Below, in pieces: positions 23,450-43,594 of a DNA stretch of 43,594 nt (the stretch's first letter is position 1; each line of letters begins with the position of its first letter). The stretch comes from Candidatus Heimdallarchaeota archaeon. GTDB lineage: Archaea > Asgardarchaeota > Heimdallarchaeia > JABLTI01. Both the position numbers and the translations under genes were made by a program. A model generated the notes under the pieces. The model was not told the origin of the DNA, did no database searches, and was given only the letters and a program-made list of their open reading frames with translations. The DNA is taken from the NCBI GenBank assembly GCA_019058275.1, contig JAHLVW010000110.1, positions 1 through 43,594 of the forward strand, in the 5' to 3' direction.

Positions 23450-24838
23450 ATGAGAGATTTATTGAAAATTGCTATCGATGAAAGACCAGATGGAGTACAT
23501 GTCGAAGCACGGTATCATCAAAGAAAGAGAATAGAAGTTCGTGCAGATAAAGGAAGACTCCAAAGGACAATCGTCGATGATTTTGCCGGTATTGGAATCA
23601 GAGTTCTTCATAAAGGAGCATGGGGGTATGCAAGCACTAGTGAATTAAATAACAAAGCAGTAAAAGAAACATTGAAAAACGCTGTAGCTGCTGCTGAGAA
23701 TTTGGCTCCAAGTATGAAAGAGAAGATTGAGCTTGCTCCAATAAAACCTGTAACTGGTTCATTCAAATCAATAGGTAAGGATCCATTTGCAAATCACACT
23801 ATTGAAGAAAGAGTAAATCTTGTAATGAATGCTGACAAGTTAGTTAGAGAAGCTGATGAGAGAATAAAAGGATCAATGGTTTTCTTAAGAGAACCAAGCA
23901 ATCATCGAATAATAATGAATTCAGATGGAACTGATGTAGAATTATTTGACAGTAGACCTGATTTCTACATTCAAGCAACTGCTGCTGAAGCGGGAAAAAT
24001 AATGCCATATTATTCAGTAAATGGTATAACTGGTGGATGGGAGATATTTAAGAAATATACACCAGAAGACATGGCTAAGAAAGCAGTAGAAACTTCAATT
24101 GATTTGCTAGAGGCTCCATTAGCTAAAGGCGGAAAACATACAGTTATTATGGAACCATCAGTAGTAGGAATAATTTGTCATGAAGCAATAGGACATACAG
24201 TTGAAAGTGATTTTGTTCTAGCAGGAAGCGCTGCAAAAGGTAAAATTGGGAAAAAAGTTGCTAGCGAACTAGTAACAATGGTAGATACAGGAGAACAAAA
24301 AACTGCTGGAGGATGGTTAGAAGTGGATGATGCAGGAGTAAAAAGTAAAAAAACTGTTATCATTAAAGAAGGGATAATGAAATCCTATCTACACAGTAGA
24401 TTTACTGCACACCATTTTGGAGTAAAACCAACTGGAAACGAACGAGCATGGGAATATAATGTAGAACCACTGATAAGAATGAGAAACACTTACCTAGAAC
24501 CAGGAAACTTTACAAAAGAAGAACTACTGGAGGATATAAAATTTGGATATCTGTGTGTTCAACCGGGAGGTGGACAAGCAGATAGTACAGCAGAATTCAT
24601 GTTTTCTATAACAGAAGCTTATGAAATAAAGGATGGAGAAATAGGTGGACTAGTGAAAAATGTCACTTTAACTGGAGATGCCTTTGAGGTATTACAATCA
24701 GTGAAAGGAGTAGGAAAGGATTGGAAACTAGACATGGGGAGCGGACATTGTGGTAAGTGGCAGCCAGCTAAAGTTGATGGCGGTGGTGGACCAACTAAAG
24801 CAACAACTTTAGTCTCAGGTGAAGTAGGAGGAAAATAA
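23450..24838 (+). CDS. tldD: TldD metalloprotease subunit
   Basis: GIGIRV, HEAIGHTVESD (HExxxH), DDAG, PTGNER, RMRNTY, GHCGK.Q...GGG.P. Confidence 0.93.
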   Translation: MRDLLKIAIDERPDGVHVEARYHQRKRIEVRADKGRLQRTIVDDFAGIGIRVLHKGAWGYASTSELNNKAVKETLKNAVAAAENLAPSMKEKIELAPIKPVTGSFKSIGKDPFANHTIEERVNLVMNADKLVREADERIKGSMVFLREPSNHRIIMNSDGTDVELFDSRPDFYIQATAAEAGKIMPYYSVNGITGGWEIFKKYTPEDMAKKAVETSIDLLEAPLAKGGKHTVIMEPSVVGIICHEAIGHTVESDFVLAGSAAKGKIGKKVASELVTMVDTGEQKTAGGWLEVDDAGVKSKKTVIIKEGIMKSYLHSRFTAHHFGVKPTGNERAWEYNVEPLIRMRNTYLEPGNFTKEELLEDIKFGYLCVQPGGGQADSTAEFMFSITEAYEIKDGEIGGLVKNVTLTGDAFEVLQSVKGVGKDWKLDMGSGHCGKWQPAKVDGGGGPTKATTLVSGEVGGK

Positions 24839-24839
24839 G

Positions 24840-26180
24840 ATGTCTGATATTTTAGCTACGTTAGAACCATTAATTGGTAAGGCTCAAAAATTGGGTGCCG
24901 ATGAAGTTGAATTTTTCGCACAAAAATACTGTGTTAAAACAGTTAACTTTGAACACAATAATATGAAATCTGCTGTTGCCAGTATTGTTGATGGTATTGG
25001 CATTCGTGTTCTTAAGAATAAAGCTCTTGGTTTTGCTAGTGCTAATTCTCTTGATAAAATCAAAATCGAGGATGCTTTGAAGGAAGCTGTTGCTATTGCT
25101 AAGGTTACTCCTCCTGAAGATAATTACTTTTTATCTCCTAAACAAAAGATTACCAAAATTCCTGAAATGTATGATAAAGCCATAGAATCCTTTTCTATGG
25201 ATGATACAATTTCCTATAGTAGTAAGCTTTTGAAGACTGCTACTGAACACGACTCAAGAGTTACTGTTGATTCTGGTACATTTGCAGCTACTATTAGAGA
25301 GAGTGCTCTTGTTAACTCTAATGGAGTTAGTATTTCTGAAACTAAATCCCTCTTCAATTGGATGCTTTTCGGTATGGCGATTGATGGTGAAGATATTGGT
25401 TCATTTGATTATTGCTATGATTCAGTGGTCAATGTGAGTGATATCGACATAGAATTTACTGCTAAAGATTTTGCTGAAAAAGTTGTACGCAATCTAAATG
25501 CTCAAAAAACAGAATCCTTTGAAGGTCTTGCTGTTTTAACACCAGATGCTGTTGGTGATTTATTCTGGCTTTTAGTTAATGCCGCTACTGCTACTCAAAT
25601 TCAAGCTGGATCAAGTTTCTTACAAGATAAACTAGGAGATAAAATCGCTGTCGATGAGCTAACCATTGTTGATGATGGAACTCTGAAAGGTCAAAGTGCA
25701 AGTTCATCTTTTGATCGTGAGGGAGTCCCACACAAAAAATATAGTGTAATCGACAAAGGTATTTTCACTGGTGTCCTATATGATACTTTCACTGCTAACA
25801 AAGAAAACATAGAAAGCACGGGTCATGCATCTGGTACCTATAGAAATATTCCAAACATTTGGACCACTAATCTTGAATTGAAACCTGGCACTAAATCATA
25901 TGAAGAACTAATTTCTGAAATTGATCATGGAATTGTAGTAAACAGAATTAGTGCTGCTCCTGATCCAATCTCTGGTGATTTCTCTGCTGCTCTCAAAGGT
26001 TCTCAACTCATCAAAAACGGTGAAATGACTGATACATTACGAGAGATTACTGCTGTTGGTAATATTTTCACAAATCTGAATACTATTACTGGTATAAGTA
26101 AAGAACAAAGAGCACTTAGAGGAAATCAGAGCTGGTTAGTTCCATACATAGTCATGGATAAAATCAAATTTGTCTCATAA
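24840..26180 (+). CDS. pmbA: PmbA/TldE subunit 1
   Basis: GIGIRV, SSFDREG, STGHA, SGDFS; lacks HExxxH. Confidence 0.9.
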   Translation: MSDILATLEPLIGKAQKLGADEVEFFAQKYCVKTVNFEHNNMKSAVASIVDGIGIRVLKNKALGFASANSLDKIKIEDALKEAVAIAKVTPPEDNYFLSPKQKITKIPEMYDKAIESFSMDDTISYSSKLLKTATEHDSRVTVDSGTFAATIRESALVNSNGVSISETKSLFNWMLFGMAIDGEDIGSFDYCYDSVVNVSDIDIEFTAKDFAEKVVRNLNAQKTESFEGLAVLTPDAVGDLFWLLVNAATATQIQAGSSFLQDKLGDKIAVDELTIVDDGTLKGQSASSSFDREGVPHKKYSVIDKGIFTGVLYDTFTANKENIESTGHASGTYRNIPNIWTTNLELKPGTKSYEELISEIDHGIVVNRISAAPDPISGDFSAALKGSQLIKNGEMTDTLREITAVGNIFTNLNTITGISKEQRALRGNQSWLVPYIVMDKIKFVS

Positions 26181-26217
26181 ACTTATGAGACATTTCTATT
26201 CATTTTTGAGGAATTCA

Positions 26218-27564
26218 ATGCTTGATGAATTGTTGACAATATTGGAACCTCTTTCTGCAAAAGCAGAAAAGGTAGGTGCTGATGAAGTTGAATTTTTTGC
26301 TCAAAAGATAAATCAAAAAACTATATTTATTGAAGCTAATAATTTAAAGTCAGCTATCTCAAATTCTTTGAATGGTGTTGGTATAAGGGTTATCAAGAAT
26401 AAATCTGTTGGGTTTGCAAGTACAAATTCTCTTGACAAAATAAAAATTGAAGATGCCTTAAATGAAGCGCTAGCTATAACAAAAGTTACTCTACCAGAAA
26501 ATAGTAATTACCTTCCTCAAAAACGAGTTATAAAAAAGATTCCTGAATTATATGATGAAGCAATTGAACAATATTCTTTAGATGATTTAATAAGTTTAAG
26601 TTCAAAAACTCTGGATTTAATTAATGATACTGACTTAAGGATTAATGTAGAAAGTGGAGAATTTAGAGCAATTAAAACAGAATTTGCTGTTACAAATTCA
26701 AATGGCATTGAAACTTCTGAGATTAGATCATCTTTTAGTTGGGATTATGCTGGAATGGCTGTAGATGAATCAGATATAGGTTCATGGGATTTCGTATCTG
26801 ATAGTGTAGTGAAAGCCAAAGATATAGACATTGAATCAAGTGTTCAGAAATTTACTAAAAAGGTTCTTGGAAATCTTAAGGCAAAAAAAACTCATTCTTT
26901 TGTTGGTTTTATGGTTTTATCCCCAGAAGCAGTATTCGATTTATTCAATATCGTTATCGAATCAGCTACTGCTTATCCAATACAACAAGGTGGAAGCTAT
27001 TTACAAGATAAATTGGGCGATCAAATAGCTATAAAAGATTTAACTATTACCGATAATGGTACACTTGAAAACAGTTGTTCAAGTAGATCATTCGATCGAG
27101 AAGGATTACCTCCTAATGAATTGAAAATAATCAATAATGGGATTTTCACAGGTGTACTTTACAATACTTTTACCGCTAATAAGGAAAATCTTGAATCAAC
27201 TGGACACGCAAGTGGTGGATTTCGAAATATTCCTTTGATTAGTTCCACAAATGTTACAATAGCTATTGGAAATAAATCAATTGAACAAATGATTGCTGAA
27301 ATCGATCATGGAATTTATGTTAAAAGAATAAGTGCTTCTCCTGATTATGTTTCAGGTGATTTTTCAGCGGTATTAAAAGGAAGCAAGTTAATTGAAAAGG
27401 GTGAAATCAAGCATACTTTGAAAGAGATCACTGCTTCTGGAAACATTTATACTAGTTTGAATGAAATCTTTGCAATTAGTAATAAAAAACATGCCCTGCG
27501 ATATGGTGATGTTAGTTTTTTTGTTCCCGAGATTTCAATAGATAACATTAGTTTCGCATCTTAA
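26218..27564 (+). CDS. pmbA: PmbA/TldE subunit 2 (tandem paralog)
   Basis: ATG 26218 after GAGGA; aligns end to end with 24840..26180 (GADEVEFFAQK, SFDREG, STGHASG, SGDFSA). Confidence 0.88.
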   Translation: MLDELLTILEPLSAKAEKVGADEVEFFAQKINQKTIFIEANNLKSAISNSLNGVGIRVIKNKSVGFASTNSLDKIKIEDALNEALAITKVTLPENSNYLPQKRVIKKIPELYDEAIEQYSLDDLISLSSKTLDLINDTDLRINVESGEFRAIKTEFAVTNSNGIETSEIRSSFSWDYAGMAVDESDIGSWDFVSDSVVKAKDIDIESSVQKFTKKVLGNLKAKKTHSFVGFMVLSPEAVFDLFNIVIESATAYPIQQGGSYLQDKLGDQIAIKDLTITDNGTLENSCSSRSFDREGLPPNELKIINNGIFTGVLYNTFTANKENLESTGHASGGFRNIPLISSTNVTIAIGNKSIEQMIAEIDHGIYVKRISASPDYVSGDFSAVLKGSKLIEKGEIKHTLKEITASGNIYTSLNEIFAISNKKHALRYGDVSFFVPEISIDNISFAS

Positions 27565-27698: not shown

Positions 27699-29372
27699 GT
27701 GAAATACTTGACTCTTGAAAGCATTGATGAACTATCATTTACTCCTCGAGATTATCAAACTGCTGCTGCTATAAGTATTTTAAAATCTATTACTGAAGAT
27801 AAGAAACGGTCAACAGTTCTCCTTCTTCCTACAGGTATGGGTAAAACAAATGTAGCAGTTATGGTTGTTTTTGAGATGTTAAAGAAAGGTTTAATCTCAC
27901 CAGAAGGCAAAGTTCTTTTCTTATCTCCAGATAGAAAACTAAAACACCAACTTCATGATGTTTGTCAAGCAGATCTCTCAACCTATGGAAGTTCCTTTTT
28001 ATTACCTGAAGGTGGAAGTTTACCTCCATCATTAACTCAGAAACATTTTGCGATTTCAAGATTTATTTTTGCAACACCCGCATTGTTAATGAATTCACTA
28101 TTTGCTCGAACACCAAGTCAAAGAAGAGTTCGACCTGAAGATCTTGATAAAATTGAATTCATTGTTATTGATGAGATTCTTGATGTTACAGCTCAAACAA
28201 TAAAAGGCGGTGGTTTCAGAATGGATAAACGTTTTGCTCCGTTAATTGATCGATTAATGGCTAAACCAACAAATCAATTCCTTGGTTTAACAGCTTCTAT
28301 CCTCCAAAAAGGCAAATTATCGTTTATTGAAAACATGTTCGGTGGAGCAGATAAGGTTGAATTCATTTATCCAAAGGGAAAAGATTTCCAAGAACATGCA
28401 CCAGCCATTAAACTAAAGCGATTTTACGTTTTCGATGACATGCGAAAAGAAATGGATACGCTTTTAATGGTTTTACGATCTAGAACTCAGAAAGTGCTAG
28501 TGAGCGGTTATTATAGACTATCAGGTGGGCAGAAGCTTCCTTCTAATAGAACACTCCTTTTTGCTAATGAAGTTATGAAAAAATCCTATCAAGGTACAAA
28601 TTTTGAAGCTGGTTCTGAAGCATTTTTTAAAAATTTAATCATAAATGCTGGAGCGTATCTTGATTTAATTGTAGCAAGACAATTTCTCTTTGAACACACA
28701 TTTCCAAAATTCGCTAATTTTGTTAGAGGGATAAAAAATACTTTACTCAACAATGCTGATGAATGGCAAGAGGTTAAAGAGTTAATCGAAATGGCAGTTA
28801 AGCAAGGGAAGGACTCTAAAGTATCACCAAAAGATTTGCGTTTAATTCAAGTGGTAAAAAAATTGGTACAAGAAGAAGATAATTCAGTTATTATCTTTTT
28901 GCGATTTGTTGAAATGACCAAGCACCTTTCATTTCTATTAGAACGAGAAGGCATTCCAAATCTCTTTGTTCATGGGCGAATGAGTGGTGAATCTCAAAAC
29001 ATGCAGCTTAAACGCTTCAAAAATGGAGAAGTAAAAGTCCTATTTGCTAGTGAACGATTGATTAGAAAAGGAACTGATTTGCCAGAAGCAGATAGATGTA
29101 TACATTTCGGAACAACTCTATCTATTGAAGCACGTGAACAAGCTATGGGTCGTATTAGAAGCACTCGATCAGACTTGAAAGAAGATATTACGATAATTTA
29201 TCATCAAACTGCTGAGCAAGAGAAGTATACAAAACTAGTTGAACAATTCCTTGAATCAGTTAAAAGCTTGAAGACATCAGCTGGCTGGACTATCTATGAT
29301 GACGGATCAGTTGAAGCTAGTGGACAAGAGCAACCAGAATTTGTGGTTGAAGAACAAGAGAAAAAGGATTAG
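27699..29372 (+). CDS. SF2 helicase, Hef/FANCM-like helicase module without a nuclease domain
   Basis: PRDYQ (Q motif), LPTGMGKT (I), IVIDEIL (II variant), GLTAS (III), KGTDLP (V), QAMGRI (VI variant). Confidence 0.8.
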   Translation: MKYLTLESIDELSFTPRDYQTAAAISILKSITEDKKRSTVLLLPTGMGKTNVAVMVVFEMLKKGLISPEGKVLFLSPDRKLKHQLHDVCQADLSTYGSSFLLPEGGSLPPSLTQKHFAISRFIFATPALLMNSLFARTPSQRRVRPEDLDKIEFIVIDEILDVTAQTIKGGGFRMDKRFAPLIDRLMAKPTNQFLGLTASILQKGKLSFIENMFGGADKVEFIYPKGKDFQEHAPAIKLKRFYVFDDMRKEMDTLLMVLRSRTQKVLVSGYYRLSGGQKLPSNRTLLFANEVMKKSYQGTNFEAGSEAFFKNLIINAGAYLDLIVARQFLFEHTFPKFANFVRGIKNTLLNNADEWQEVKELIEMAVKQGKDSKVSPKDLRLIQVVKKLVQEEDNSVIIFLRFVEMTKHLSFLLEREGIPNLFVHGRMSGESQNMQLKRFKNGEVKVLFASERLIRKGTDLPEADRCIHFGTTLSIEAREQAMGRIRSTRSDLKEDITIIYHQTAEQEKYTKLVEQFLESVKSLKTSAGWTIYDDGSVEASGQEQPEFVVEEQEKKD

Positions 29373-29384
29373 TAATAATATTTC

Positions 29385-30656
29385 CTAAACCTTTTCAGGT
29401 TGTTTTGGTATGAGATTTATTTTAGTATAGTGTAAAATCAGTAAGGTAAGTGGAATCACTAGAAGCACAAAAAACCCTATGCTGCCAATTAGGAAAACAG
29501 CAGAATAACAGGTAGCTAAGATAATTGGCTGGAAAATTATAGGTGATAAGGATTCACCGATATACCACATAGTGTTATATCCACTAACTACTTTTCCTCG
29601 ATTTTTAATTGAAGTATTACTAACAAGATACAAACTAAAATTTGGTAATAGAAAACCAAAACCAAATCCCCCTACTAACGCTGCAACTAAAAAAATAGCA
29701 AAATTACTAGCAAAAGATAATATAATAAATCCTATTCCCAACAAACCAAAACCGATTAATGATATTATATGGAAATTCAAGATTTTCTTAAATTGATTAT
29801 ATAATATTCCTATTAAAGCTGCAGCAACCATAACAGCAGCCATAATTATCCCTACTCTAAAGCTAGATATTTCTAGTTCCAAATCATCAACATAGTATGA
29901 AATTTGCGAGGGACCTAGATAAAAGAAAAACATCAAAGCAAAAATTGAGAAATAGCAAACAGCAATAATCCATTTTGTGCTTAAACCTTCAACTGTGCAT
30001 GTATTCTCGGAATCTTGTGTCTTTTTATTTAGTGGGGTTGCTTCTTTGATGATATCATCACCCATCTCTTGATTTTTAGGTCCGTGAAGGATAAAAATCG
30101 TTGTAGGTAGGAGGATAGCTGGAAATAAGTACACTAAGAAGGGGTAATTCTATTGGATATCAAATAAAGCTCCACCAATTAAAGCAAAAACCACTGAACC
30201 TATTGCTCCAGTAGCAACCTGGAATCCTAATACTCTATCCCGTTTTTCTCCTTGATAATAATCGCCTATCAAAGTTAAAATTGTGTTCATATTACCTGCA
30301 GCAGCAATACCAAGAAAAGCTCGACTCACTATAATACCATATAAATTAGTAATGTAAAATCCCATGGATCCTGCAACAATATAAAGAATTAATGAACTAA
30401 TAAGAACAGGTTTTCTACCCCATTTATCAATAAGAAAACCAATAATAAACGCAAAAAGTGCAAAAGTTAAAGTAGGTACTGTTAAACTGAATTTAGTAAG
30501 AAATTCTGCATTAGCAACTATTCCATCAAAATGCTCAGTAATTTTTGATAATCCAGGAGAAATCGGTGTACCAACCATGACTGTTAATGTACTCAGTAAT
30601 AATAGAGTTGTTTCGCGTAAGAGTCCTTTGATTGGTTTCTCATCTTCTTCCAACAA
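29385..30656 (-). pseudogene. MFS transporter interrupted by an in-frame TAG (30150-30152)
   Basis: GFLIDKWGRKPV (motif A). The two ORFs are in frame: ALFDIQ*NYPFLVYLFP, where W is usual (W.YPF.VY). Confidence 0.85.
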
Positions 30657-30737
30657 TTCTATCCTTCCTAGATACTAAATTATTTAACTTAATATAGACT
30701 ATTAATGAACCTATTTAGAAATTTGTTACTTTGTTTT

Positions 30738-30915
30738 ATCTGTCATCAGACAGCAGAACAAGGAAAGTATACCAAATTAGTAGAGCAATTCCTAGAATCT
30801 GTAGAGTCTAAAAACACATGCTTGATGGACGATCTTTGATGATGGTTCAGTTCAAACAGGAACCAAGCAACAACTAGATTTCGTAGTCGAAGATGAGAAT
30901 GCTTCAACAGAATAA
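30738..30915 (+). repeat. diverged, frameshifted duplicate of the helicase 3' end (~29196-29372)
   Basis: Translates to ICHQTAEQGKYTKLVEQFLESV...WTIFDDGSVQ...DFVVEDE, versus helicase IYHQTAEQEKYTKLVEQFLESV...WTIYDDGSVE...EFVVEEQ. Confidence 0.9.
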
Positions 30916-30927
30916 GTGCAAAAAAAA

Positions 30928-31765
30928 TTAAATTTTAATTTCTCGTTTCTTGATATAATCTTTGAAATTATTTGCTTCAACAATTAAGGATTCTAATCCA
31001 GTGTCTATCATATCCTCTAGTAAATTAGCCAAACCAGAAACTAATTTGCTGTCGTGTGTAAAATCTTCTTGTTTAATAGCATTAAATTGTTTTTGTATCA
31101 GATCAGCAATTCATACAAATAATTCTGGTGTTGATTTGATTCTTTCTTCACCAGCATTATAGATTGATTGGAGTAGATGTAGCCATCTAGAGTAAGCTTC
31201 TTCATCATTGAATAAAACAAATTTAATGTAAGCATACTGCATCTTTTGAAGAAATTTCTGATCAATGCTTGAATGAGTGTCATAAAATGCCTGTTCAAAT
31301 CTAGACTTAAATATTTAGATACCAATTTTCCAAATCTGTAGAAGACAAATCTTCTGGTGGCGTCATAGGTTCTTCATAGTGTATTGTATATGGATAATCT
31401 GCTTCTATTAGATAAGAAGTCAGCTCTTTCCAAAACTTAGCTCTACTATAATCTCGTTGCTTGACTGATATAAGATCATGATCCATTGCACCACTTGTTG
31501 CCATTGCCTTATATCGTTGTTCTTCTTCTGAATTGCAATCGTTGAATTGTTTGCTCTCGTAATCATAGATTTTTACAATAGCATCATTTGGTTTTACAAA
31601 ACACTAAAAACCTTCACTCATATTGTCACCATCATTTACGCTGACATAATGAATGCCTGGTTCAACTTCAGCATACCCTCGAAAGCCACCCTTGATTTCA
31701 AATATTGAGAAATCCAATTGGGCTTCTTCTTTTGGAATATCTCTTAATATAATATAACCAAACAT
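30928..31765 (-). pseudogene. AAR2-like protein (homolog of the eukaryotic U5 snRNP assembly factor), disrupted by TAG, frameshift and TGA
   Basis: GGAGGT RBS then ATG 31765. Reconstruction: MFGYIILRDIP...GFRGYAEVEPGIHYV...GF*CFVKPNDAIVKIYD...FWKELTSYL...FLQKMQYAYIKFVL...AYSRWLHLL...PELFV*IADLIQKQF. Lesions at 31604-06, ~31309 and 31111-13. Confidence 0.7.
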
Positions 31766-31851
31766 GATGATTACCTCCTTAGATTTTTTGGTCTAAGGTT
31801 GTAAATCAGTAAAATTAGGTTGAATTTATATAAAAGAATGCTATAGCAATA

Positions 31852-32227: not shown

Positions 32228-33520
32228 ATGTTTGATAAAGAATTAGTTAAAAACATTAGGGCAGCGTTCCCTCGAGCTGTAAAAGATTTTAATGGAAGGG
32301 AGCGAGCTTTTTTTGATAATGGAACAGGAACACTTGTCTTAGAAAGTGCTGCTCAAGCAGAAGCTAAAGCACGAATCGATTGTAGTGCTAATGTAGGTGG
32401 TATTTTCGATGAATCCAAGAGCGCAGAGGAAACTATCGAAACAGGAAGACAAGTAGTGGCAGATTATCTTAATGCTCCCTCACTCAATACTATTGTCTCT
32501 GGAGAATCAGCAACAACATTATTCTTTACTGTTAGCTATGCATTAGGAAAAGAATTCAAGGGAACTGAAAATGTTGTTACTACTGAACTCGAACATTACG
32601 CAAATGTGAGTCCATGGAATGAGTTGGTTAGACAAGGGAAAATCAAAGAAGTACGATTTGCACGTATGAATAAAGAAGATGGTACTCTCGATTTAGAACA
32701 TATGAAGGAATTAATAGACTCTAACACAAAGGTAGTATCTGTTACTTCTGCATCAAATATGACTGGAACGAAAATTCCACTTGAACCTGTATGCAAAATA
32801 GCTCGAGAAGCACAAGCATACTTTCTAGTAGATGCTGTTCACCATGTTCCCCATGAACCAATTGATGTTCAAGCAATAGACTGTGACTTTCTTGTTTTCT
32901 CTGGATACAAACTTTTTGGATCGCATGGGAGCTTTATGTATAGCAATGTGGATTATCTCGAGAGCTTAAAACCATATAAGGTGAAACCTTCAAAGAATTA
33001 TGGACCCGCTAAATGGGAATCGGGTACTAGGAATCAAGCAATGTTTGCATCAATTAAAGGAGTTATGGATCATTTCCTTTGGTTATCTGAACAGGTACAG
33101 TCCCAGTATGATGGGGAATTCAAGGAATATGCAGAAAATAAAAGAGCCTTAAAAATTGCAATGGATGCTATCCAGCAAAATGAAAAAGGACTATCTAAAA
33201 CTGTCTTAAAAGGATTTGATGATATCCCAGGTCTTCTAAATATCCTGAATGTGAAAGTCTATGGTATAATAGATACAAATCGTTTAAATGAGAGAGATCC
33301 GACGTTTGCATTCTCAGTAGATAACACACCTCATGAAGAAGTAGTTAAACGCTTATGGGAAGAAGGTGGAATAGCTGCTCGTGCTGGGAATTTCTACTCA
33401 TATGCACAAGAAGTCTATAACCAACTAAACGTTATTCGAATCAGTTTAGTACATTACAATACAATAGAAGAAGTACGAATTTTCCTTAAAACCTTAAATG
33501 CAATTTGCAGTAAGTTGTAA
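32228..33520 (+). CDS. class-V PLP aminotransferase / cysteine desulfurase-like protein
   Basis: FFDNGTG, LEHYANVSPW, ASNMTG, VDAVH, FSGYKLFG (PLP Lys), RISLVHYNT. ARAGNFY replaces the RxGHHC catalytic Cys motif. Confidence 0.88.
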   Translation: MFDKELVKNIRAAFPRAVKDFNGRERAFFDNGTGTLVLESAAQAEAKARIDCSANVGGIFDESKSAEETIETGRQVVADYLNAPSLNTIVSGESATTLFFTVSYALGKEFKGTENVVTTELEHYANVSPWNELVRQGKIKEVRFARMNKEDGTLDLEHMKELIDSNTKVVSVTSASNMTGTKIPLEPVCKIAREAQAYFLVDAVHHVPHEPIDVQAIDCDFLVFSGYKLFGSHGSFMYSNVDYLESLKPYKVKPSKNYGPAKWESGTRNQAMFASIKGVMDHFLWLSEQVQSQYDGEFKEYAENKRALKIAMDAIQQNEKGLSKTVLKGFDDIPGLLNILNVKVYGIIDTNRLNERDPTFAFSVDNTPHEEVVKRLWEEGGIAARAGNFYSYAQEVYNQLNVIRISLVHYNTIEEVRIFLKTLNAICSKL

Positions 33521-33781: not shown

Positions 33782-34531
33782 TTACATTTTCTCAAAAAAA
33801 CCTACTTTCTTTAGTTTTTTATAGCAATCTTTTATTTGCTCTTCTGGAAATGATCCATCCCAATTTGAGAAATACTTGTCCAAAAATCCTTTATAACCTT
33901 CTTTCTGAATATCTTCTTTAGTTAATGATGAGAAATGATTTTCCTCTTTGTCGTATTCATCAATAATTTCCTCAATCTCTTTTGAAGACAACCTTTGGTA
34001 TTTATTGTAATGGATAACTCCTTTCCGAACACGTCCCTTAAAATGCTCAGGTTCCTCTTTTGCATAACCAAGACAAATTGAAATTAGAGGAAAACAATAC
34101 TTGTCTGGAAGATTAAGAATCTTGTAGACTTTCTCTAATTCCATCCGGAATAACTTTGATGTTGCCAGGGAATCTATTCCCAGTGATTTTGCTGCTATAA
34201 TCGCTGTTTGAGAAGCCATTATAGCGTCAATATTCCCAAGAAAAAATCCTCTAATATCACCTACTTGAATGGAATGATTAAGATGATTTGCACAATCAAT
34301 CCAACGATTAAAATCAACACAAAAAACCAATGCTTTATTTGCTTTGAAAAAATATTCATCTAATAACTTTCTATCATCGACAACAACTACTGAATATACT
34401 TGTCTTCCTCCAGAATTTGCTGTTCGTAAAGTCGTTTCAAGTATTTCTTCTAATTTTTTTCCTTCGATTTCCATATCTGAGAATTTTCTTATTGATCTCA
34501 TACTATGTAAAGTTTCCATTGTTTTGTTCAT
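33782..34531 (-). CDS. nitroreductase family protein
   Basis: MRSIRKF, QVYSVVVV, AAKSLGI, ISICLGY. Confidence 0.88.
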   Translation of the reverse strand: MNKTMETLHSMRSIRKFSDMEIEGKKLEEILETTLRTANSGGRQVYSVVVVDDRKLLDEYFFKANKALVFCVDFNRWIDCANHLNHSIQVGDIRGFFLGNIDAIMASQTAIIAAKSLGIDSLATSKLFRMELEKVYKILNLPDKYCFPLISICLGYAKEEPEHFKGRVRKGVIHYNKYQRLSSKEIEEIIDEYDKEENHFSSLTKEDIQKEGYKGFLDKYFSNWDGSFPEEQIKDCYKKLKKVGFFEKM

Positions 34532-34656
34532 TCTCTTTCGCCAATACTAAATCTGATAAATTAGTACTATATAGAACTAATTTAAACTTTTCAATAAATC
34601 CGTATTAATTATTATTGAATCAAAAATAACCTTCTCTTTTTTGCAATAACTTGGGA

Positions 34657-34908
34657 CTATATTGCTAATGTTTAATCTTTTTATAACATATATGTATCTT
34701 TAACAGTCTTTAAATTTCTTCGAAATTACATTACACACCTTTAGTAGATTCAGTAAAAAGCTATAGCTAAATAGATTTCTATCTTAGAAAGTTATGAAGA
34801 TTAATAATTGGTGTGTGAGGCCGGATTTGAACTAACGATATTCAGCTATTTCGGTAATGAAGGTAAACCTCAAACAAATGTAAGGCTAACATCATACCAA
34901 GCTATAAC
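34657..34908 (+). repeat. ~250-bp imperfect direct repeat of 43252-43500
   Basis: CTATATTGCTAA...TCTTTTTATAACATATATGTATCTTTAACAGTCTTT...CACCTTTAGTAGATTCAGTAAAA... followed by the tRNA sequence in both copies. Confidence 0.92.
34809..34908 (-). pseudogene. decayed intron-containing tRNA-Val (anticodon reads TAC)
   Basis: Both exons align with 43405-43500, mostly with GC-to-AT transitions; the 5' acceptor strand is lost; the intron sequence differs. Confidence 0.75.
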
Positions 34909-35124
34909 TTTCTAATATTCTTTCTAAATCTATTATTTTTAATTACATAAAAATTAAGTTATAATTGCTATATTAAAGCTTTTAAAAAGAATTTTTATTA
35001 TAAAAAAAAGAAAAGGGAAATTCATTAAAAAATTATTTCCCTTTCATACCCTTACTTGAGAGTGTGACCAGTCCCAACTTAGACCATCAATAAATACATT
35101 ATAAACACATCTATGGTAAAATCC

Positions 35125-35577
35125 TCATGTAGGTCTGCAATAAGTTTGTATGAATAAATCGACATCAAGGCCACCATAGCTAACTCCACCAGGTACTGGT
35201 CCATAGGCAGACCATTTATGGCAGGTATCACCATCATCATATACTCGATAATTTTCAGAATATACTGTATGATCAGCGATTTTTAGTATTATATAGTCAT
35301 TGAGGTATGTTTTGTATATTTTATAGTTGGAAAAGTCAATTTCAAATTCCCATTTTTGATATGTATAACAATCTTCGCTTGGAAAATATGTGTACCAAAT
35401 CTTTATTGTTATGTCCAAACTTTCATATTTGCTTGGCCACCATTCAGATTCAATCTCTACTTGATATGTTGTTGTAGGTGGTGGTATTGAATATACAGGT
35501 TGTAATCCTACGATAATAATTATCGATAAGATAATAGTCATTAGAGATAAAAATATGCTAAAATGTTTCCTTTTCAA
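35125..35577 (-). CDS. small secreted aromatic/beta-rich protein (frame continues past TGA to 35044)
   Basis: Basic plus hydrophobic signal peptide (MKRKHFSIFLSLMTIILSIIIIVG), PPPTTT linker, GGAGG RBS. Confidence 0.65.
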   Translation of the reverse strand: MKRKHFSIFLSLMTIILSIIIIVGLQPVYSIPPPTTTYQVEIESEWWPSKYESLDITIKIWYTYFPSEDCYTYQKWEFEIDFSNYKIYKTYLNDYIILKIADHTVYSENYRVYDDGDTCHKWSAYGPVPGGVSYGGLDVDLFIQTYCRPT

Positions 35578-35784
35578 ACATTTCCCTCCAATTTTTTTCT
35601 AATATTTTTGTTATTCTTAATTCTGTAATAACAAAAATATATGTTAAAAGGATTTAAATTTTTTATAAAAATATTTTGATTTTTTATCAGCACATTTTTT
35701 ATCATATATAGGTATGAAATTTTTCAGATAATAAGAAAAATTTAATACCATTTTATTCTTATTAATATATTGGAATAGGGAACA

Positions 35785-38686
35785 ATGAATTTCTCAAAAG
35801 ATGATGAAAACAATGTAAATTACTATAGACCCAATTATAAGAAACTAATTAGTATTATTATTAAATCAAGGAAAAAAAGTATAATTGTTTCATGTTTTTT
35901 CAATATGATTATCTTTCTTCTTATAACTTCATTATTTATAATTTGGATTTCATATCGAGAAAATTATTTCAATAATTATCTTTCAGAAATTGATTGGTAT
36001 GATGATAACAACACCTCTTCATTTATTTCAGAGATTAACTTTTTCTTCAAATTCAACTTCACATTACTTTGAGGATATTTTTTATAATGTTGAAAAAGTT
36101 ATTAATGAAATCATTCCGAATGTAACAATTCACAAAACTGGAAGAATTACCACATTAGTAAGAGGGAATGATTTATCATATTATGCTTTACAGACATATG
36201 ATCTAAACACTTGCTCAATTTTAGAACAATCATTAGTTAAGGGCAATCTACCACAAAATCATACTGAAATCTTAGTTTATAATCAAGAATATAATTTAGT
36301 TGATTACGAAGTGGGTCAAAGTATTAGCTTTATACCTGATTCGTTTAAAACAAATTATACTGACACAGTTTATAATAATTTTACTATTTCAGGTATTCTT
36401 GAAAATTTTGATAGTACCCTACATCTCTTAGGTTATTCTAATGACTTTAATTGGGAAGGTTACCCATTAGAAGATGAACAATACGATATGGGAAGCTCCC
36501 CTATTTCTTGTATATTTATTACTTCCCAAGAGAATTTTGTTAGAATAATTAATAATTTCACAGATTTCTCATCGTTATTTATAGTTAATATTGATTTCTT
36601 ATATGATTATTCAATGATTGATTTTAACAATGTTTCTTATTACTTGCAAAAATATCAAGGACTATTTGATGAAGGAACTACTATCTCAAATAATATTCAA
36701 GTTAAATTAGGTGCTGATTTTATAAACGTGATAATAAATTATCAGACTTCTTGGATAATAGAGACAATAAAAGTCGTTTCTGTTAACTTTTCAATTTTGT
36801 TGATTCTAATTTTAATTTCTTATGAAATACTAAACTATAATTCAAAAAAATTGTCTTTAATATTTCAGCTGATAAAATCATACGGACTTGATTTGTCTAC
36901 TGCAAGACGTGTAATTTTTGCTGAATCAGGTCTGGTATTAAGTGCTAGTTTAGTCACTGGTTTTACTGTAGGCTTACTAATCAGCTATCCAATACTCTAC
37001 TTGTTAAACCATACTTTAAAATTAAAAATTGTATTTCAAGTTTTGAAAAATCCATTTTTTATAAGTCTAACAATTGTTTTTATAGCCATTATTTTCTTGC
37101 TAGATTATTACTATAAAATTTCTGTTGCTAAAAAAGTTGAGAGTACAATTCCCTTACAGTTTAAACTAAAACGCGCAAATAAATTTAAAAGATTTTTTTC
37201 AAAATTCTGGATTTTATCACTCTTTCTCGGTACAATTTTGCTTCCTGCTGGTTTAATTAGTTCCATTTTCTTAAGTGATTATTTAGCCTGGAGTGAAAAT
37301 GCAAATCTAAGAATTGAATCTTTTTTAGCTTTATCAATTGCCATTTTAATATTTGGAATATTCTTCATTCTATATGCTTTCTTTTACAATTTCTCAAAAC
37401 TCATAGCCAAGATTTATACATCAGTAGGAGAGAAATTTTGGTTAAAGAAAAAAAATTTTATAACATTAGTTATGAAGAATATATCCTTCTCGAAAAAAAA
37501 CATCCAACAGATATTGTTTGGTGTTTTTATCGTATCCATAAATATTATACCAAGTTTTGTGATAAAACCTTCAATACAAAATCATTTAGATTTAAATGCA
37601 ACTATAGCAACTGGATTTTCAGATTTGGAAATAAATAGTTGGAATTCAAATCAAACACTAAAACAAGAAATTAGTGACATTAATGGGGTAAATTTTACAG
37701 CTGAGATTATTAATGTTAAATTATATACCGAAACAGGTTATAGTACTTTAGATTTTAATCAATACTTGATAAATATATTAGTGATTAATGTTTCTAATTT
37801 TGCAAAACTTATTAAATTCAATCCATACAAAAACGAGAAAGCATTAGAATATGATAAAATTCAATCATTAGAACAAAATATGTCCTATATGACAAATAGT
37901 AATTTTGCTAAAAAATTCGCCTTTAATAAAGGGAATATCTTGAATAGCTGGGATTTTATTAATACTCCTAGAAATTATCAAATGGTATATATTGACAACT
38001 TTGATTATTTTCCAGCTATGGCTGTTTTTGAAAAGGATTTACTTTTCAAATTGTATTATCCTGAAACTGATACATTCCAAATGGTCCTAAATTATAACTC
38101 ATATTGGACTTTAATAAATAATTCACAAGATTTTGAATTTATCTCGATTCAATCAAAATTACTAATTAAAACTGATAAAGGAATAAATAATACAATAATA
38201 AAAGAATATCTTTTGAAAAATTACAATATCAACGCTTTTACTTTGGATGAAATAAAAGAATCAATGAATAAAGAAACTTCTGAGTTTATTTTTGGTTTAT
38301 TTAAATTTCAATCTATTCTGTATGTTTTTACTTTTGTTCTTGTAGGGTATTTTGCTAGTTGTAACACTTTTCTACAAAGAACTAGAAACATTGAAAATGC
38401 ACTTCGTATCGGAGCTTCTCGCAAACAAATTTTCTTAGAATATACACTTGAATTTATATTTCTAGTATTTATCCAAGTTCTAATTTCAATACTATTAGGT
38501 ATATTACTCCTAAGATTATATGTTGCTTTGTTAAATATCAATCAAAACTTCGTATTATATAAACCTCGCTTACCTTGGTGGTTTTATATTTTTTCGTTTT
38601 TATTAGGATCTATTTCATTGATGATTGGCTGGTTTGTAGGTTCATCATTAAAATTTCGCCAATATCAGCAAACAAGAAATATGTAG
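35785..38686 (+). pseudogene. FtsX/MacB-like ABC permease 1, +1 frameshift in the T run near 36040-36044
   Basis: 35785..36072 supplies the N-terminal TM and 35990..38686 the remainder (LVKGNLPQNHTEI, LRIGASRKQI). The joined product is collinear with 38726..41602. Confidence 0.8.
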
Positions 38687-38725
38687 AATATTATCTTAAT
38701 CTTAAAGACGAAGGATGAAAAAGTA

Positions 38726-41602
38726 ATGGTAAAAAATGAAAAAGTAGAAAAGTCCTTTAGCTATTCAATTAAGAAGATTATTCAGATTTACTTAAAGAGT
38801 GGAAAAAAGAGAATCATTTACACTTCATTTTTTGTATTGGTTTCATTTCTCTCAATGTCCTTATTATTCATAACTTGGTCTACTTATCAAAATGAATTAT
38901 TTAATACAAATATTTCAAGCTATTCATGGTATGGTGATGGCTTACATTCTTCCTTCACCGTTTATGAAAAAAATCTTGACTCATCAATTCCTTCAAACTA
39001 TATTGATAGAGGAATTAATGATGTAAAAAATGCTATAAGTAATGTAACATCTAATGCAGTTACAAAAGCTTCAGCGTCCTTGGAGATTTTCTTAAGAGGT
39101 CCAAATCCAATTTATGAAATTTTAGCTGATTATAAAATTAAAGCGTTTGATTTAAACACCAGTAGAATCCTAAGTCAAAGTCTTGTTGCTGGACGTATGC
39201 CAAAAAACGATTCGGAAATAATTTATTATAAAGCTGAAAATTTAATCTTAAATTTCTCTGTGAATGATACTATAGAGTTAAAACCTGATTTACCTGATAT
39301 GCCTATGAGAGTATTTACAATTACTGGGATTATTGACGATCTTGAAACAACATTTCAAATGCATGGATTTTCAAAGGATCTTATCTGGGAGAGTGCGAGA
39401 AATGAAAAATATGGTTATTCTACATACACCCAAAGTATTGGAACTTTTATAACTACTCCAAATTATTTATATAATTTAATAAATAATTTCACTGATTTCT
39501 ATTCAACATTCGTTTTTTTAGTAGACATTAAATATGAAGCAAATTCAATAAACTATTACGAACTGAATTCTTATTTACCAGGATTAAAAGAATTACAAAA
39601 TGGCATTAACTTAGATTTCACAGATAATGTATCTTTCAAAATGGCTGTAGACTTATATGATTTCATCAATAACTTTCATATGACGCAATTATTAGAAACT
39701 ACAAGATTAAGTGCTATTAGTATCATTATTGCTCTTTTATTTTTACTTGCTATCTCCGAACTTTTTTCTTATAAAAAACAAGAACTTTCTTCCATTTTCA
39801 ATTTAATGTTACGATATGGGTTAGATAGTAAACCAATAAAATTAACCATATTGACTGAAATTAGTATAATTACTTCCGTTGGAATACTAGGAGGTACAAT
39901 TCTTGGTATTTTTTCAGGTTTTATTTTTACTTTGATTTTAAAATGGGAAGTTTCTCTAAGTTCCTTTTTGAATAGTTTAGCTACTATTCAATTCTTAATA
40001 ATCTTTTTTATATTATCAGTCATACAATTTGTGCTTGGTATCTATTCTAGGCAATCTATTTTTAAAACTGTAAAAAATTCACAATTATCAGAGATAGAAA
40101 TTGAAGGCAATACAAGTTTTATAAATAAAATATTTTCATTTAATGAAATTTTATTTCTTTTTCCTGGCATAATACTTTTAGCAATTGGCATTCCAGGACT
40201 TCTTTATACAAATACTATTCTTGATATATATTCAAATCCCTATATTGAATTTCTAAAAGTTCTTTTTGTGACATTGCTTTTTATTGGGATTGTTCTTATC
40301 AGCTTCGCACTTTTTTATCTATTATCTAGAATTTTCTCTTATTTTTTTAAAATTTTTGGAAAATTTATTTGGCAAAAAAGAAAGAGCTTTCTAACATTAT
40401 CCCTTAAAAACATCTCAAAAGACTTTCGTTATTACCAAAAAATAATATTAGTTATATTTTTTATTGGATTAGGATTTATACCAGGTCTAACGATAAACAG
40501 TACAATTAACAATCATTTACAATTGAATTCAATATTAGCAACTGGATGTTCTGATCTAATAATTGATGATTGGAATTTGAATCAAACCTTAAGAAAGGAA
40601 ATAGATGATTTGAAAGAAATCGAATCAACTACAGAAATCATTTTTCTAGAATTTACTTCAATAGGTAATAATAATGTGAGATATTTAATTAAGATGCTTG
40701 CCATAAATGCAACTGAATTTGTCAATGTAGCAAATATTAACAAACTAAAAAAATCTAATTACTCCCTAGATGATATATTAGCATTAAATAGAAATATGAC
40801 CTGTTTGCTAGATGATAACTTTGTGCGAAATAATAGAGATGTAAATTTAAACAAGAAATTTACATGTAATAACTATTGGAAATCAGTTGATAGTAATGAG
40901 TTAGATGTTATACAAAGTTTTGATAATTTCCCATCATTACTTAACGTGAATAATCAGATACTATATCAACAAATTAATAAAATTGAACAGTTTCGAATGG
41001 TCGTGAATCTTCAGACCTATGAAAAGATGATGAATGATGTTTATAGCATAGAAATAACATCCTCCAAGCAACAATTATTGCTAAAAATCAACCAAAATTC
41101 AGAAACAAATAAGGCAAAAAGTCAGCTTTCAAACCTTTTTAATATTGTCTCCTTTGATTCTGAAGATGTTAAATCAACTATGATAAAAAAAGCATCTGTA
41201 TTTTCTTTACAAATTCTTTCAGTTATTTTGATATTTACAATATTTCTAACAATCTTATTTGGCTTCATTTATGGGAATAATCAATACCTGAAACGAATAA
41301 GGAATGTTGAGTCAGATTTTCGACTTGGTGCTACAAAAAATCAAATTTGGATTGGATTTCTTATAGAAATAATAGTATTAGCAACAATTCCCTTAATTAT
41401 TTCAGTAATTAGTGGCTTTCTATTAGTAAAGATTTATCCACAGTTTCTAAATATAGATCAAAGCTATATAACATATAATCTTTGGGAAAATTGGTGGGTG
41501 TTATTTGTTGCATTTATTATTGGAGAAATAGCTATCTGCATTGGTTGGTTATTAGGATTAATTCCTCAAATTAAATATTACAAACTACAAAAACAGGAAT
41601 GA
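38726..41602 (+). CDS. FtsX/MacB-like ABC permease 2
   Basis: LVAGRMPKNDSEI, FTITGII, RLGATKNQI; two repeats of TM / large extracellular domain / 3 TM. Confidence 0.85.
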   Translation: MVKNEKVEKSFSYSIKKIIQIYLKSGKKRIIYTSFFVLVSFLSMSLLFITWSTYQNELFNTNISSYSWYGDGLHSSFTVYEKNLDSSIPSNYIDRGINDVKNAISNVTSNAVTKASASLEIFLRGPNPIYEILADYKIKAFDLNTSRILSQSLVAGRMPKNDSEIIYYKAENLILNFSVNDTIELKPDLPDMPMRVFTITGIIDDLETTFQMHGFSKDLIWESARNEKYGYSTYTQSIGTFITTPNYLYNLINNFTDFYSTFVFLVDIKYEANSINYYELNSYLPGLKELQNGINLDFTDNVSFKMAVDLYDFINNFHMTQLLETTRLSAISIIIALLFLLAISELFSYKKQELSSIFNLMLRYGLDSKPIKLTILTEISIITSVGILGGTILGIFSGFIFTLILKWEVSLSSFLNSLATIQFLIIFFILSVIQFVLGIYSRQSIFKTVKNSQLSEIEIEGNTSFINKIFSFNEILFLFPGIILLAIGIPGLLYTNTILDIYSNPYIEFLKVLFVTLLFIGIVLISFALFYLLSRIFSYFFKIFGKFIWQKRKSFLTLSLKNISKDFRYYQKIILVIFFIGLGFIPGLTINSTINNHLQLNSILATGCSDLIIDDWNLNQTLRKEIDDLKEIESTTEIIFLEFTSIGNNNVRYLIKMLAINATEFVNVANINKLKKSNYSLDDILALNRNMTCLLDDNFVRNNRDVNLNKKFTCNNYWKSVDSNELDVIQSFDNFPSLLNVNNQILYQQINKIEQFRMVVNLQTYEKMMNDVYSIEITSSKQQLLLKINQNSETNKAKSQLSNLFNIVSFDSEDVKSTMIKKASVFSLQILSVILIFTIFLTILFGFIYGNNQYLKRIRNVESDFRLGATKNQIWIGFLIEIIVLATIPLIISVISGFLLVKIYPQFLNIDQSYITYNLWENWWVLFVAFIIGEIAICIGWLLGLIPQIKYYKLQKQE

Positions 41603-41607
41603 TATAG

Positions 41608-43270
41608 ATGATTGTAACATGTAAAGATTTAATAAAAATATACAAAGATTCAGTAAGAAAGATTAATGTTCCAGCTTTACGAGGATGTGATTTTGAAGTT
41701 AACCAAGGAGAATTAGTTTCTATTGTGGGGCCAAGTGGATCAGGTAAAACTACTTTGATAAATATTTTAGCTGGTTTAGATACACCATCTAGTGGAGAGG
41801 TTGAAGTTGCTGGATATAAATTGGATAAACTCAACCCTAAATTCTTGCAAGCATTTCGGTTACTAACAATTGGATTAGTAGATCAATTTCCAGAAAGAAC
41901 ACTTTTTCTTAATGTTACTATTGATGATAATTTGACATATGCTGAAAGTGTTATTAATAAACCAAATTCTTCAGAAAATTTATCAAACCAAACTATTTTA
42001 GAGCAATTAGGAATTTTAAAACTTAAAAATAGGTGTGTAAATACCTTATCTGGTGGTGAAATTACAAGGGTTGCCTTAGCATGTGCTCTTGCAAAAGGGG
42101 TTCCACTAATTCTTTGTGATGAACCTACTGGCCAACTAGATGGTTTAAACACTGATAAAATAAAATTTTTATTAAAAATGATAGTTCGAGACTTTGGTAC
42201 TACCATCATTGTGGTCACTCATGATAAAAGGTTTTTAGATGGTGTCGATAGAACATTTGAAATAAAAGATGGACGGGTAACAGCCATTCTTACACATGCT
42301 GAAAGAGTTTTATTACAACAGAGCCCAAAGTTTCCATTAAGATTTAAAAGTTATATTGATACAACCAGAACAATGCATGTACCTGATATGATATACAAAA
42401 CTTTAAAATTAACAGATTCAGGTGAATTCCTTCTTAAAAAAAAGTGGAAAAGTAGTGTTTGAAAATCCTAGTGATATTCAACCAGAGAAAATTAACTTAG
42501 AGCAACTTAAACCAAAAAGGGAAACAATTAAAAAAGTTCCAATAGATGACCATTATAGCGAAAATAAAGAACTTTTAATTATGCTTAGAAACCTCTCAAA
42601 AACATATAAAACTAAGGGCGGTTTAGTTGAAGCATTAACTGATACAAATTTAGTAATCTATAAAGGTGACATTTTATATATTATGGGTCCTAGTGGTTCT
42701 GGAAAAACTACTCTTCTCCGATTAATCTCAGGTCTTGAATTAGCATCAAAAGGCGAGATCTTTATTTTAGAAGAAAATTTTAGTAAATGGGATGATACCA
42801 AACGTGCAATCTTTCGTAGAGATAATATGGGAATTGTAGCACAACATGGAAATCTTAATCCATTTTTAACTATTAGTGAAAACTTAATCCTAAAAAAGAT
42901 TTATCAAGGTAATAAATTAACAGATACCATTGAACAAAATCAATCAATACTTAATTTATTTGTTGATTTACAAATCAAAGAAAGATTTCAAGCATATCCT
43001 TTAGAAATATCTGGCGGTGAATTACAAAGAGCCTCTTTAGCTATAGCTATAAATGAATCACCAAAAATATTACTTCTTGATGAGCCTACTGCAAACCTTG
43101 ATTCAGATTTGGCAAAACATGTAGTTAATCTGATATTTGAAAAATGCAAAACACTTGGTTTAACAGCATTAATTTCAACTCATGATTTAAATATTCTTAA
43201 AGAAGGAGTTCGTTTGATCGAGTTATCGGATGGACAGATTATTAAAAACAGCTATATTGCTAAGGCTTAA
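41608..43270 (+). pseudogene. tandem LolD/MacB-type ABC ATPase (probably one two-domain gene), frameshift in the A8 run at 42436-42443
   Basis: Two GPSGSGKTTL / LSGGE or ISGGE / DEPT / THD sets. With A7 the frames join as EFLLKKSGKVVFENP. Confidence 0.75.
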
Positions 43271-43404
43271 TCTTTTTATAACATATATGTATCTTTAACA
43301 GTCTTTCAATTTCTTCGAAATTACTTTATACACCTTTAGTAGATTCAGTAAAAATGCTATTGCAAAATATATTTTTTTCTTAGAGAGTAATAAAGACTAA
43401 TGAT

Positions 43405-43507
43405 TGGTGTGCGAGGCCGGATTTGAACCAGCGATATCCAGCTATCTCACTACCTAAGAACTTGGTAGCAGTGAGGCTGGCGTCATACCGAGCTAGACCA
43501 CTCGCAC
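43405..43507 (-). tRNA. tRNA-Val(CAC) with a 26-nt BHB intron (43444-43469), CCA encoded
   Basis: Acceptor GTGCGAG/CTCGCAC, D arm GTCTAGCTCGGTATGAC, stem CCAGC/GCTGG, BHB CTCA/TGAG with CTG and ATA bulges, TTCAAAT T loop, A73. Confidence 0.9.
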
Positions 43508-43594
43508 TTACCTAATTTTATCTGTTAAAAGCAACCTATTGAATATTTCTACAACCTTATGTACCTTTTATGTAAACATTGAATAAAAGGAATA

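Follow-up and report, generated by a model that had tools for sequence, protein, structure and literature searches.

A probable unitary pseudogene of the spliceosome-assembly factor AAR2 at a conserved chromosomal site in a Heimdallarchaeota genome

Eukaryotic AAR2 (Aar2p in yeast) is an assembly factor of the U5 snRNP and binds Prp8 at its RNase H-like and Jab1/MPN domains. Structures of the eukaryotic protein are available under PDB entries 7PJH, 3SBT, 4ILG and 4I43. AAR2 has been reported to be the only spliceosomal orthogroup for which one-to-one orthologues exist in a few prokaryotes, which comprise Loki- and Gerdarchaeota, one Helarchaeote, cyanobacteria, a planctomycete and a member of the Chloroflexi; the prokaryotic proteins are termed uncharacterised in that study (Vosseberg et al., 2023, Mol Biol Evol; PMC9887622). 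Neither gene decay nor a pattern of loss within a genus is described there, and a literature search found no later paper treating prokaryotic AAR2. The DNA analysed here (a stretch of 43,594 nucleotides, hereafter the window) had been predicted from its letters to carry an AAR2-like gene broken into fragments, with the suspicion that the presence of such a gene in an Asgard archaeon would not in itself be new. That suspicion was justified, as orthologues from Asgard archaea and bacteria were already in the 2023 study (PMC9887622). The locus is in this respect largely ordinary, bringing no new family and no function. Its addition is a modest one: a verified pseudogene, together with signs that the gene was passed on vertically at one site and was lost more than once in the genus.

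As in the Asgard and bacterial homologues (PMC9887622), the gene comprises two AAR2 Pfam domains in about 280 amino acids, and it stands alone, without a conserved operon partner. When read through its lesions, it is 45-62% identical to intact proteins of 279-282 aa from Heimdall-, Hel-, Hod- and Lokiarchaeota, which bear the NCBI name 'AAR2 pre-mRNA splicing protein'. Unlike these homologues, the copy in the window bears two nonsense codons and a frameshift, which seem to have inactivated it. With eukaryotic AAR2 it shares the succession of an N-terminal beta domain and a C-terminal helical domain, and the predicted structure of an intact relative resembles human AAR2 with a TM-score of 0.78. 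It differs from the eukaryotic protein in length (~280 aa versus 355-384 aa), in sequence (13-16% identity in structural alignments) and in that this particular copy is, to all appearances, non-functional.

The AAR2-family pseudogene lies on the minus strand at positions 30928..31765 and consists of 278 codons when read through, as judged by its translations, Pfam matches and homologues. Its frame opens with an ATG (31765-31763), and a Shine-Dalgarno-like GGAGGT (31773..31778, minus strand) is located 7 nt upstream; the arrangement GGAGGTAATCA-ATG also precedes the AAR2 orthologue on a contig (L012) of GCA_019894765.1, a MAG labelled Ca. Heimdallarchaeota. Farther upstream, 60-70 nt from the ATG, the TATA-box-like TTTTATATAAA (31825..31835, minus strand) may represent a promoter element. 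The first AAR2 frame extends over 53 codons to an in-frame TAG at codon 54 (31604..31606, minus strand) and onward to a TAA (31309-31307). Alignment with homologues places a frameshift at approximately codon 152 (31309..31312), and the AAR2 frame resumes one base further, in the +1 frame, from 31314; it then passes through an in-frame TGA at codon 218 (31111..31113, minus strand), likewise identified as a lesion by alignment, and ends at a TAA (30930-30928). Directly after this stop follows a run of eight T (30920..30927, minus strand), a putative terminator-like element of archaeal type. The N-terminal part (31310..31765, minus strand) holds the AAR2 N-terminal beta domain (PF20981, residues 5-120), and the C-terminal part (30931..31314, minus strand) holds the AAR2 C-terminal helical domain (PF05282), recognised by Pfam and by a profile match to the human structure 7pjh_A. 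Together, the two pieces (P0001 and P0002) yield a read-through product of 278 residues (P0003). The original prediction of one frame of about 278 codons, running through two stops and a frameshift behind a GGAGGT ribosome-binding site, is thus borne out on the minus strand from 31765 to 30928, and all six AAR2 motifs that it quoted are found in the read-through in the order claimed. With its frame interrupted at codons 54, ~152 and 218, the locus is, on the strength of its sequence, an AAR2 member by descent and not by function.

Several lines of evidence agree on the family. PF20981 matches the N-terminal piece with 49.5 bits (gathering cut-off 23.6, E 6.3e-13), a result that recurs in a genome-wide profile scan, and PF05282 matches the C-terminal piece with 41.9 bits (gathering cut-off 23.6, E 1.3e-10) and scores 40.2 bits in the genome-wide scan; NCBIfam has no AAR2 model. 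The read-through retrieves 95 homologues in a protein database search, with E-values down to 1.9e-100. Those of full length measure ~260-290 aa, nearly all of them contain both AAR2 domains, and the best are 57-62% identical to the read-through. Since each half scores above its Pfam gathering threshold and 95 homologues are found, the relationship is far beyond chance. The named homologues belong to Ca. Heimdallarchaeota, Helarchaeota, Hodarchaeota, Promethearchaeota/Lokiarchaeum and the 'Asgard group', with bacterial labels on a few. Ca. Heimdallarchaeota is the label both of the closest proteins and of the contigs with conserved synteny, in line with the archaeal, Asgard host that had been proposed. 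A family profile built from 16 sequences matches human AAR2 (7pjh_A) with an E-value of 1.3e-12. For the structural comparison, an AlphaFold model was built not on the broken copy but on P0004, the best intact relative of full length (57% identical; alignment of 84 sequences); the model reached a pLDDT of 94.5 and a pTM of 0.89. Its top 11 Foldseek matches in the PDB are all AAR2 or Aar2p, the best being 7pjh_A (E 6e-11), and nothing else falls below E 0.04. The checks originally proposed, of profiles against Pfam and of structure against yeast and human Aar2, came out positive: both domains and 7PJH were matched by profile, and the intact relative found AAR2 structures alone. Based on the Pfam domains, the homologues, the profile match and the fold of P0004, membership in the family by descent is secure, and this archaeal gene is truly related to the spliceosome-assembly factor of eukaryotes.

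The pseudogene is embedded among genes of ordinary chromosomal type; the neighbourhood includes pirin, endonuclease V, three paralogues of the TldD/PmbA family, a helicase, an MFS transporter, AAR2, an aminotransferase, a nitroreductase and an ABC/FtsX-type cluster. Two intact genes serve as synteny anchors: a DEAD/ResIII helicase of 557 aa on one side (27699..29372, plus strand) and a class V aminotransferase of 430 aa on the other (32228..33520, plus strand), the latter divergent from AAR2. The order endonuclease V, TldD/PmbA, helicase, (MFS), AAR2, aminotransferase, nitroreductase recurs in four congeners (G003, G005, G007 and G010) and in GCA_019894765.1, and in the four congeners AAR2 is intact at the syntenic site, with 279-282 aa. 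The adjoining MFS transporter gene (29385..30656, minus strand) is broken by a TAG (30152-30150), as revealed by comparison with the intact 423-aa orthologue of G003, which has Trp at this position. The break is common to other assemblies, with a shorter second half in DRR463595 and GCA_050009915.1 (224 versus 249 aa), and this gene also seems to be a pseudogene. Between the MFS start and the AAR2 stop, tblastn detects a degenerate duplicate of the helicase 3' end (30729..30897, plus strand). It corresponds to ~57 codons (residues 497-553), is interrupted by one stop and one frameshift, and aligns with 73% and 58% identity (E 1.4e-15). A comparable fragment is found beside the MFS gene of congener G004, and in congeners without the MFS gene, helicase and AAR2 are directly convergent. 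The MFS gene was thus apparently inserted between helicase and AAR2 with duplication of the helicase 3' end, of which the fragment would be the scar.

Comparison with homologues allows the lesions to be described as mutations of a once-intact gene. At codon 54, Trp is invariant in 84 homologues, so that the TAG is one G-to-A change away from TGG. Around the frameshift, the conserved 'WYLxxFKSRF' stretch is shorter by exactly one alignment column in the read-through, which points to the deletion of 2 bp. At codon 218, the homologues vary: the sister sequence P0006 has Arg, P0004 and others have Gly, and an Arg or Gly codon is one step from TGA. The genome scan found no further AAR2 locus in the source genome, a MAG of 92.8% completeness. 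As the lesions, identified against syntenic intact orthologues, recur in other assemblies and no second AAR2 locus was found, we regard the gene as very probably a unitary pseudogene: a single-copy Asgard AAR2 orthologue that was inherited vertically, stayed at a fixed site and suffered three inactivating mutations. These would be independent events, namely Trp54 TGG to TAG, the 2-bp deletion at about codon 152 and the nonsense TGA at codon 218. As what remains would be at most an N-terminal stub of 53 residues, AAR2 function is presumably absent here. The intact ancestor would have been a protein of ~280 aa with a beta sandwich and a helical domain, folded as in eukaryotic AAR2, and its loss would fit a wider pattern that includes AAR2 loss in the genus and the decay of accessory genes in this genome by nonsense mutations and frameshifts.

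The source genome being a MAG of 118 contigs with 6.8% contamination, one could suppose that the gene is intact and that the three lesions are errors of sequencing or assembly. However, a search extended to shorter proteins detected the 65-aa and 53-aa fragment ORFs of the pseudogene on other contigs and thereby led to four other assemblies, from at least three runs, all of which have the same three lesions and also the stop in the neighbouring MFS gene. Over 3 kb, identity to the window is 100% for the Logan contig of SRR14803106, 99.97% for that of SRR14803105, and 99.73% both for that of DRR463595 and for a 1.55-Mb contig of GCA_050009915.1; the latter two stem from a slightly different strain, with seven substitutions and one gap over this length. 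To estimate the background of such lesions, genes on a 133-kb contig of a congener were compared with the source genome by tblastn; 77 orthologues with at least 55% identity, amounting to 77 kb of aligned coding sequence, were evaluated. Each of these conserved genes gives one unbroken alignment without a frameshift, and there are at most three truly internal stops, versus ~277 lesions expected in those 77 kb at the density seen in AAR2; given the background rate, three or more lesions within 838 nt have a probability of 6e-6. Erroneous sequence, a reading already largely refuted by these comparisons, thus has hardly any credibility left. The other way to rescue the gene is recoding, in which TAG and TGA would be read as amino acids (e.g., Pyl, Sec or Trp) and a programmed +1 frameshift would restore the frame. 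Pyl and Sec usage is known in some Asgard lineages, the TAG codons of AAR2 and of the neighbouring MFS gene both occupy Trp positions, which could hint at recoding, and the sequence past each stop is well conserved; moreover, the divergence of the gene hardly exceeds that of intact relatives, which, taken alone, fits a gene that is still read somehow. Yet ARAGORN predicts no tRNA with a CUA or UCA anticodon, the best match to PylS reaches 35.9 bits versus a cut-off of 178, and another internal TAG of the genome is found at a Lys position. Stops lying between two long in-frame open segments number 101 TAA, 66 TGA and 54 TAG genome-wide, while ordinary stops comprise 1714 TAA, 706 TGA and 694 TAG, so that TAG is in no marked excess among the in-frame junctions. 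The full-length homologues that were inspected, of which five were taken from the DNA of congeners and 84 from the protein database, are all free of stops and shifts at these sites. Three different events within one gene of 838 nt would be without precedent, and the frameshift would require a third, unrelated mechanism. We therefore judge recoding of the locus unlikely in the extreme.

A different question is how the gene came to its place. The original prediction took AAR2 for mobile on account of its accessory location and decay, which would make it the cargo of a horizontally transferred accessory island that decays after transfer. The patchiness of the family, found in 11 of 400 Asgard genomes and in scattered bacteria (PMC9887622), speaks for such a history, as do the insertion of the MFS gene alongside with duplication of the helicase 3' end and the AAR2 of G010, which falls in another clade than those of the remaining congeners. 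But the gene occupies one and the same position among housekeeping-type genes in the five genomes listed above (four congeners and GCA_019894765.1), its GC content (0.326) equals that of the flanks, and no integrase, transposase or tRNA is found near it among the genes scanned from 19.7 to 43.3 kb. Because of the fixed site, the matching GC and the missing mobile-element genes, we reject the suggestion of mobility, to which we would grant a very slim chance, and retain the reading of a vertically inherited gene that decayed in place.

Some indication of the age of this decay comes from the tree and from the strains. P0006 is the sister of the pseudogene in a maximum-likelihood tree, and the terminal branch measures 0.28 for the pseudogene and 0.33 for P0006. 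At 60 highly conserved columns, the pseudogene deviates five times (once by the Trp-to-stop change), the family median being three. The normal branch and the retention of conserved residues suggest that the decay is recent relative to species divergence; at the same time, the inactivation predates the split of strains that are ~0.3% (0.27%) apart. Faster evolution of the pseudogene was considered and discarded, as its branch is no longer than its sister's, and so was a faster change between strains (4 differences in 838 nt of pseudogene versus 3 in 2163 nt of flank; Fisher p = 0.10). AAR2 itself seems to be fast-evolving in general: between the source genome and its congeners, identity amounts to 45-53% for AAR2, whereas the helicase reaches 78-87% and the aminotransferase 74-75%. 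The AAR2 of G010 (L006, 9693-10541) groups with P0014, a protein labelled 'Asgard group archaeon', despite its conserved syntenic position; this placement may reflect either an old divergence or the replacement by a foreign copy.

Related genomes offer further cases of AAR2 impairment or absence. In GCA_019894765.1, AAR2 (L012, 7950-8020) has a 1-bp insertion after codon 18-19 that puts the conserved N-terminal 18 residues, a strand, out of frame; gene callers give a 262-aa protein from an internal ATG (P0015), which is found on seven contigs. This lesion is independent of the three lesions of the window. Congener G008 is left with the AAR2 C-terminal domain alone, in an open frame of 132 codons (L035, 1822-2208; G008:C54) that follows immediately, and in the same frame, on the stop of an unrelated ORF with membrane helices and a CxxC...CxxC zinc ribbon. 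G009 and G006 have no AAR2 beside the helicase, and neither AAR2 domain was detected anywhere in these assemblies (82-86% complete). G001 and G004 are two further genomes of the genus in which AAR2 was not found. In G002, an AAR2 gene is present and interrupted by the contig end. Across the Asgard archaea, the AAR2 N-terminal domain was found in 11 of 400 genomes, representing 6 of 85 genera, and among these 11, the source genome alone has a stop inside the match. The independent lesions and the absences in congeners imply that AAR2 is dispensable, as had been supposed from its decay. A more far-reaching reading of the repeated losses in the genus, by which the archaeal client of AAR2 was lost or became dispensable, is improbable in our estimation; if true, a comparison of genomes with intact, decayed and absent AAR2 would reveal the pre-spliceosomal partner of the protein by co-loss. 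Close genomes with and without a working AAR2 constitute a set for a partner search. The losses, in a genus where none of three candidate partners (Prp8 domain IV, group II intron maturase and an eCIS-core effector) was found in the searches described below, advise caution against viewing Asgard AAR2 as a core 'proto-spliceosomal' component.

As archaea have no spliceosome, the AAR2 partner must differ from the eukaryotic one. By analogy with the eukaryotic counterpart and based on the modelled fold, we infer that the intact family, including the ancestor of the pseudogene, acts as a protein-binding or assembly factor for some archaeal partner, a role that would bear on spliceosome assembly during eukaryogenesis. 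This partner would be neither Prp8 nor a group II intron maturase. The co-occurrence with group II intron reverse transcriptases that had been put forward for examination did not materialise: no group II intron maturase (GIIM) domain was found in the source genome or in five congeners, four of which have an intact AAR2 and one an AAR2 ended by the contig end. Prp8 domain IV (PF12134) was not found in the source genome and four AAR2-bearing congeners, in a search in which the control genomes also gave no match. On two Lokiarchaeal contigs (L010, 7115-7867; L011, 7103-7855), AAR2 is divergently paired with a 250-aa protein containing HFX_2341_N and WHD_DUF6293 domains. This protein was dismissed as a partner since the two do not co-vary within the Heimdall-group class, where HFX_2341_N occurs in G006, G010, G012 and G016 and AAR2 in G003, G005, G007 and G010.

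A few other observations were made in passing. An RNase H gene is found two genes downstream on contig L010. On a 1.6-Mb contig of bacterial type (L014, 2202-7964), a 1920-aa eCIS_core protein ends 37 bp before an AAR2 homologue on the same strand; eCIS_core was not found in 41 genomes of the window's class, in a search run without a positive control. Conserved genes of the source genome are mostly intact, but other internal stops occur among them: a TAG at a Lys position in a 714-aa orthologue (G000:C30:27248) and two TGA at Gly positions near the C-terminus of an orthologue of ~1000 aa (G000:C100:74-98). The three TldD/PmbA paralogues of the window are arranged in tandem at 23450-27564 (plus strand), and two are found at this place in G003 and GCA_019894765.1. 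Finally, the GC content falls from ~0.32-0.35 to 0.26-0.27 over the last 9.5 kb of the window (34001-43594), a region that carries two FtsX-like permease genes of ~900 aa and two ABC ATPase genes, the ATPases being fused into a single protein of 579 aa in G010.
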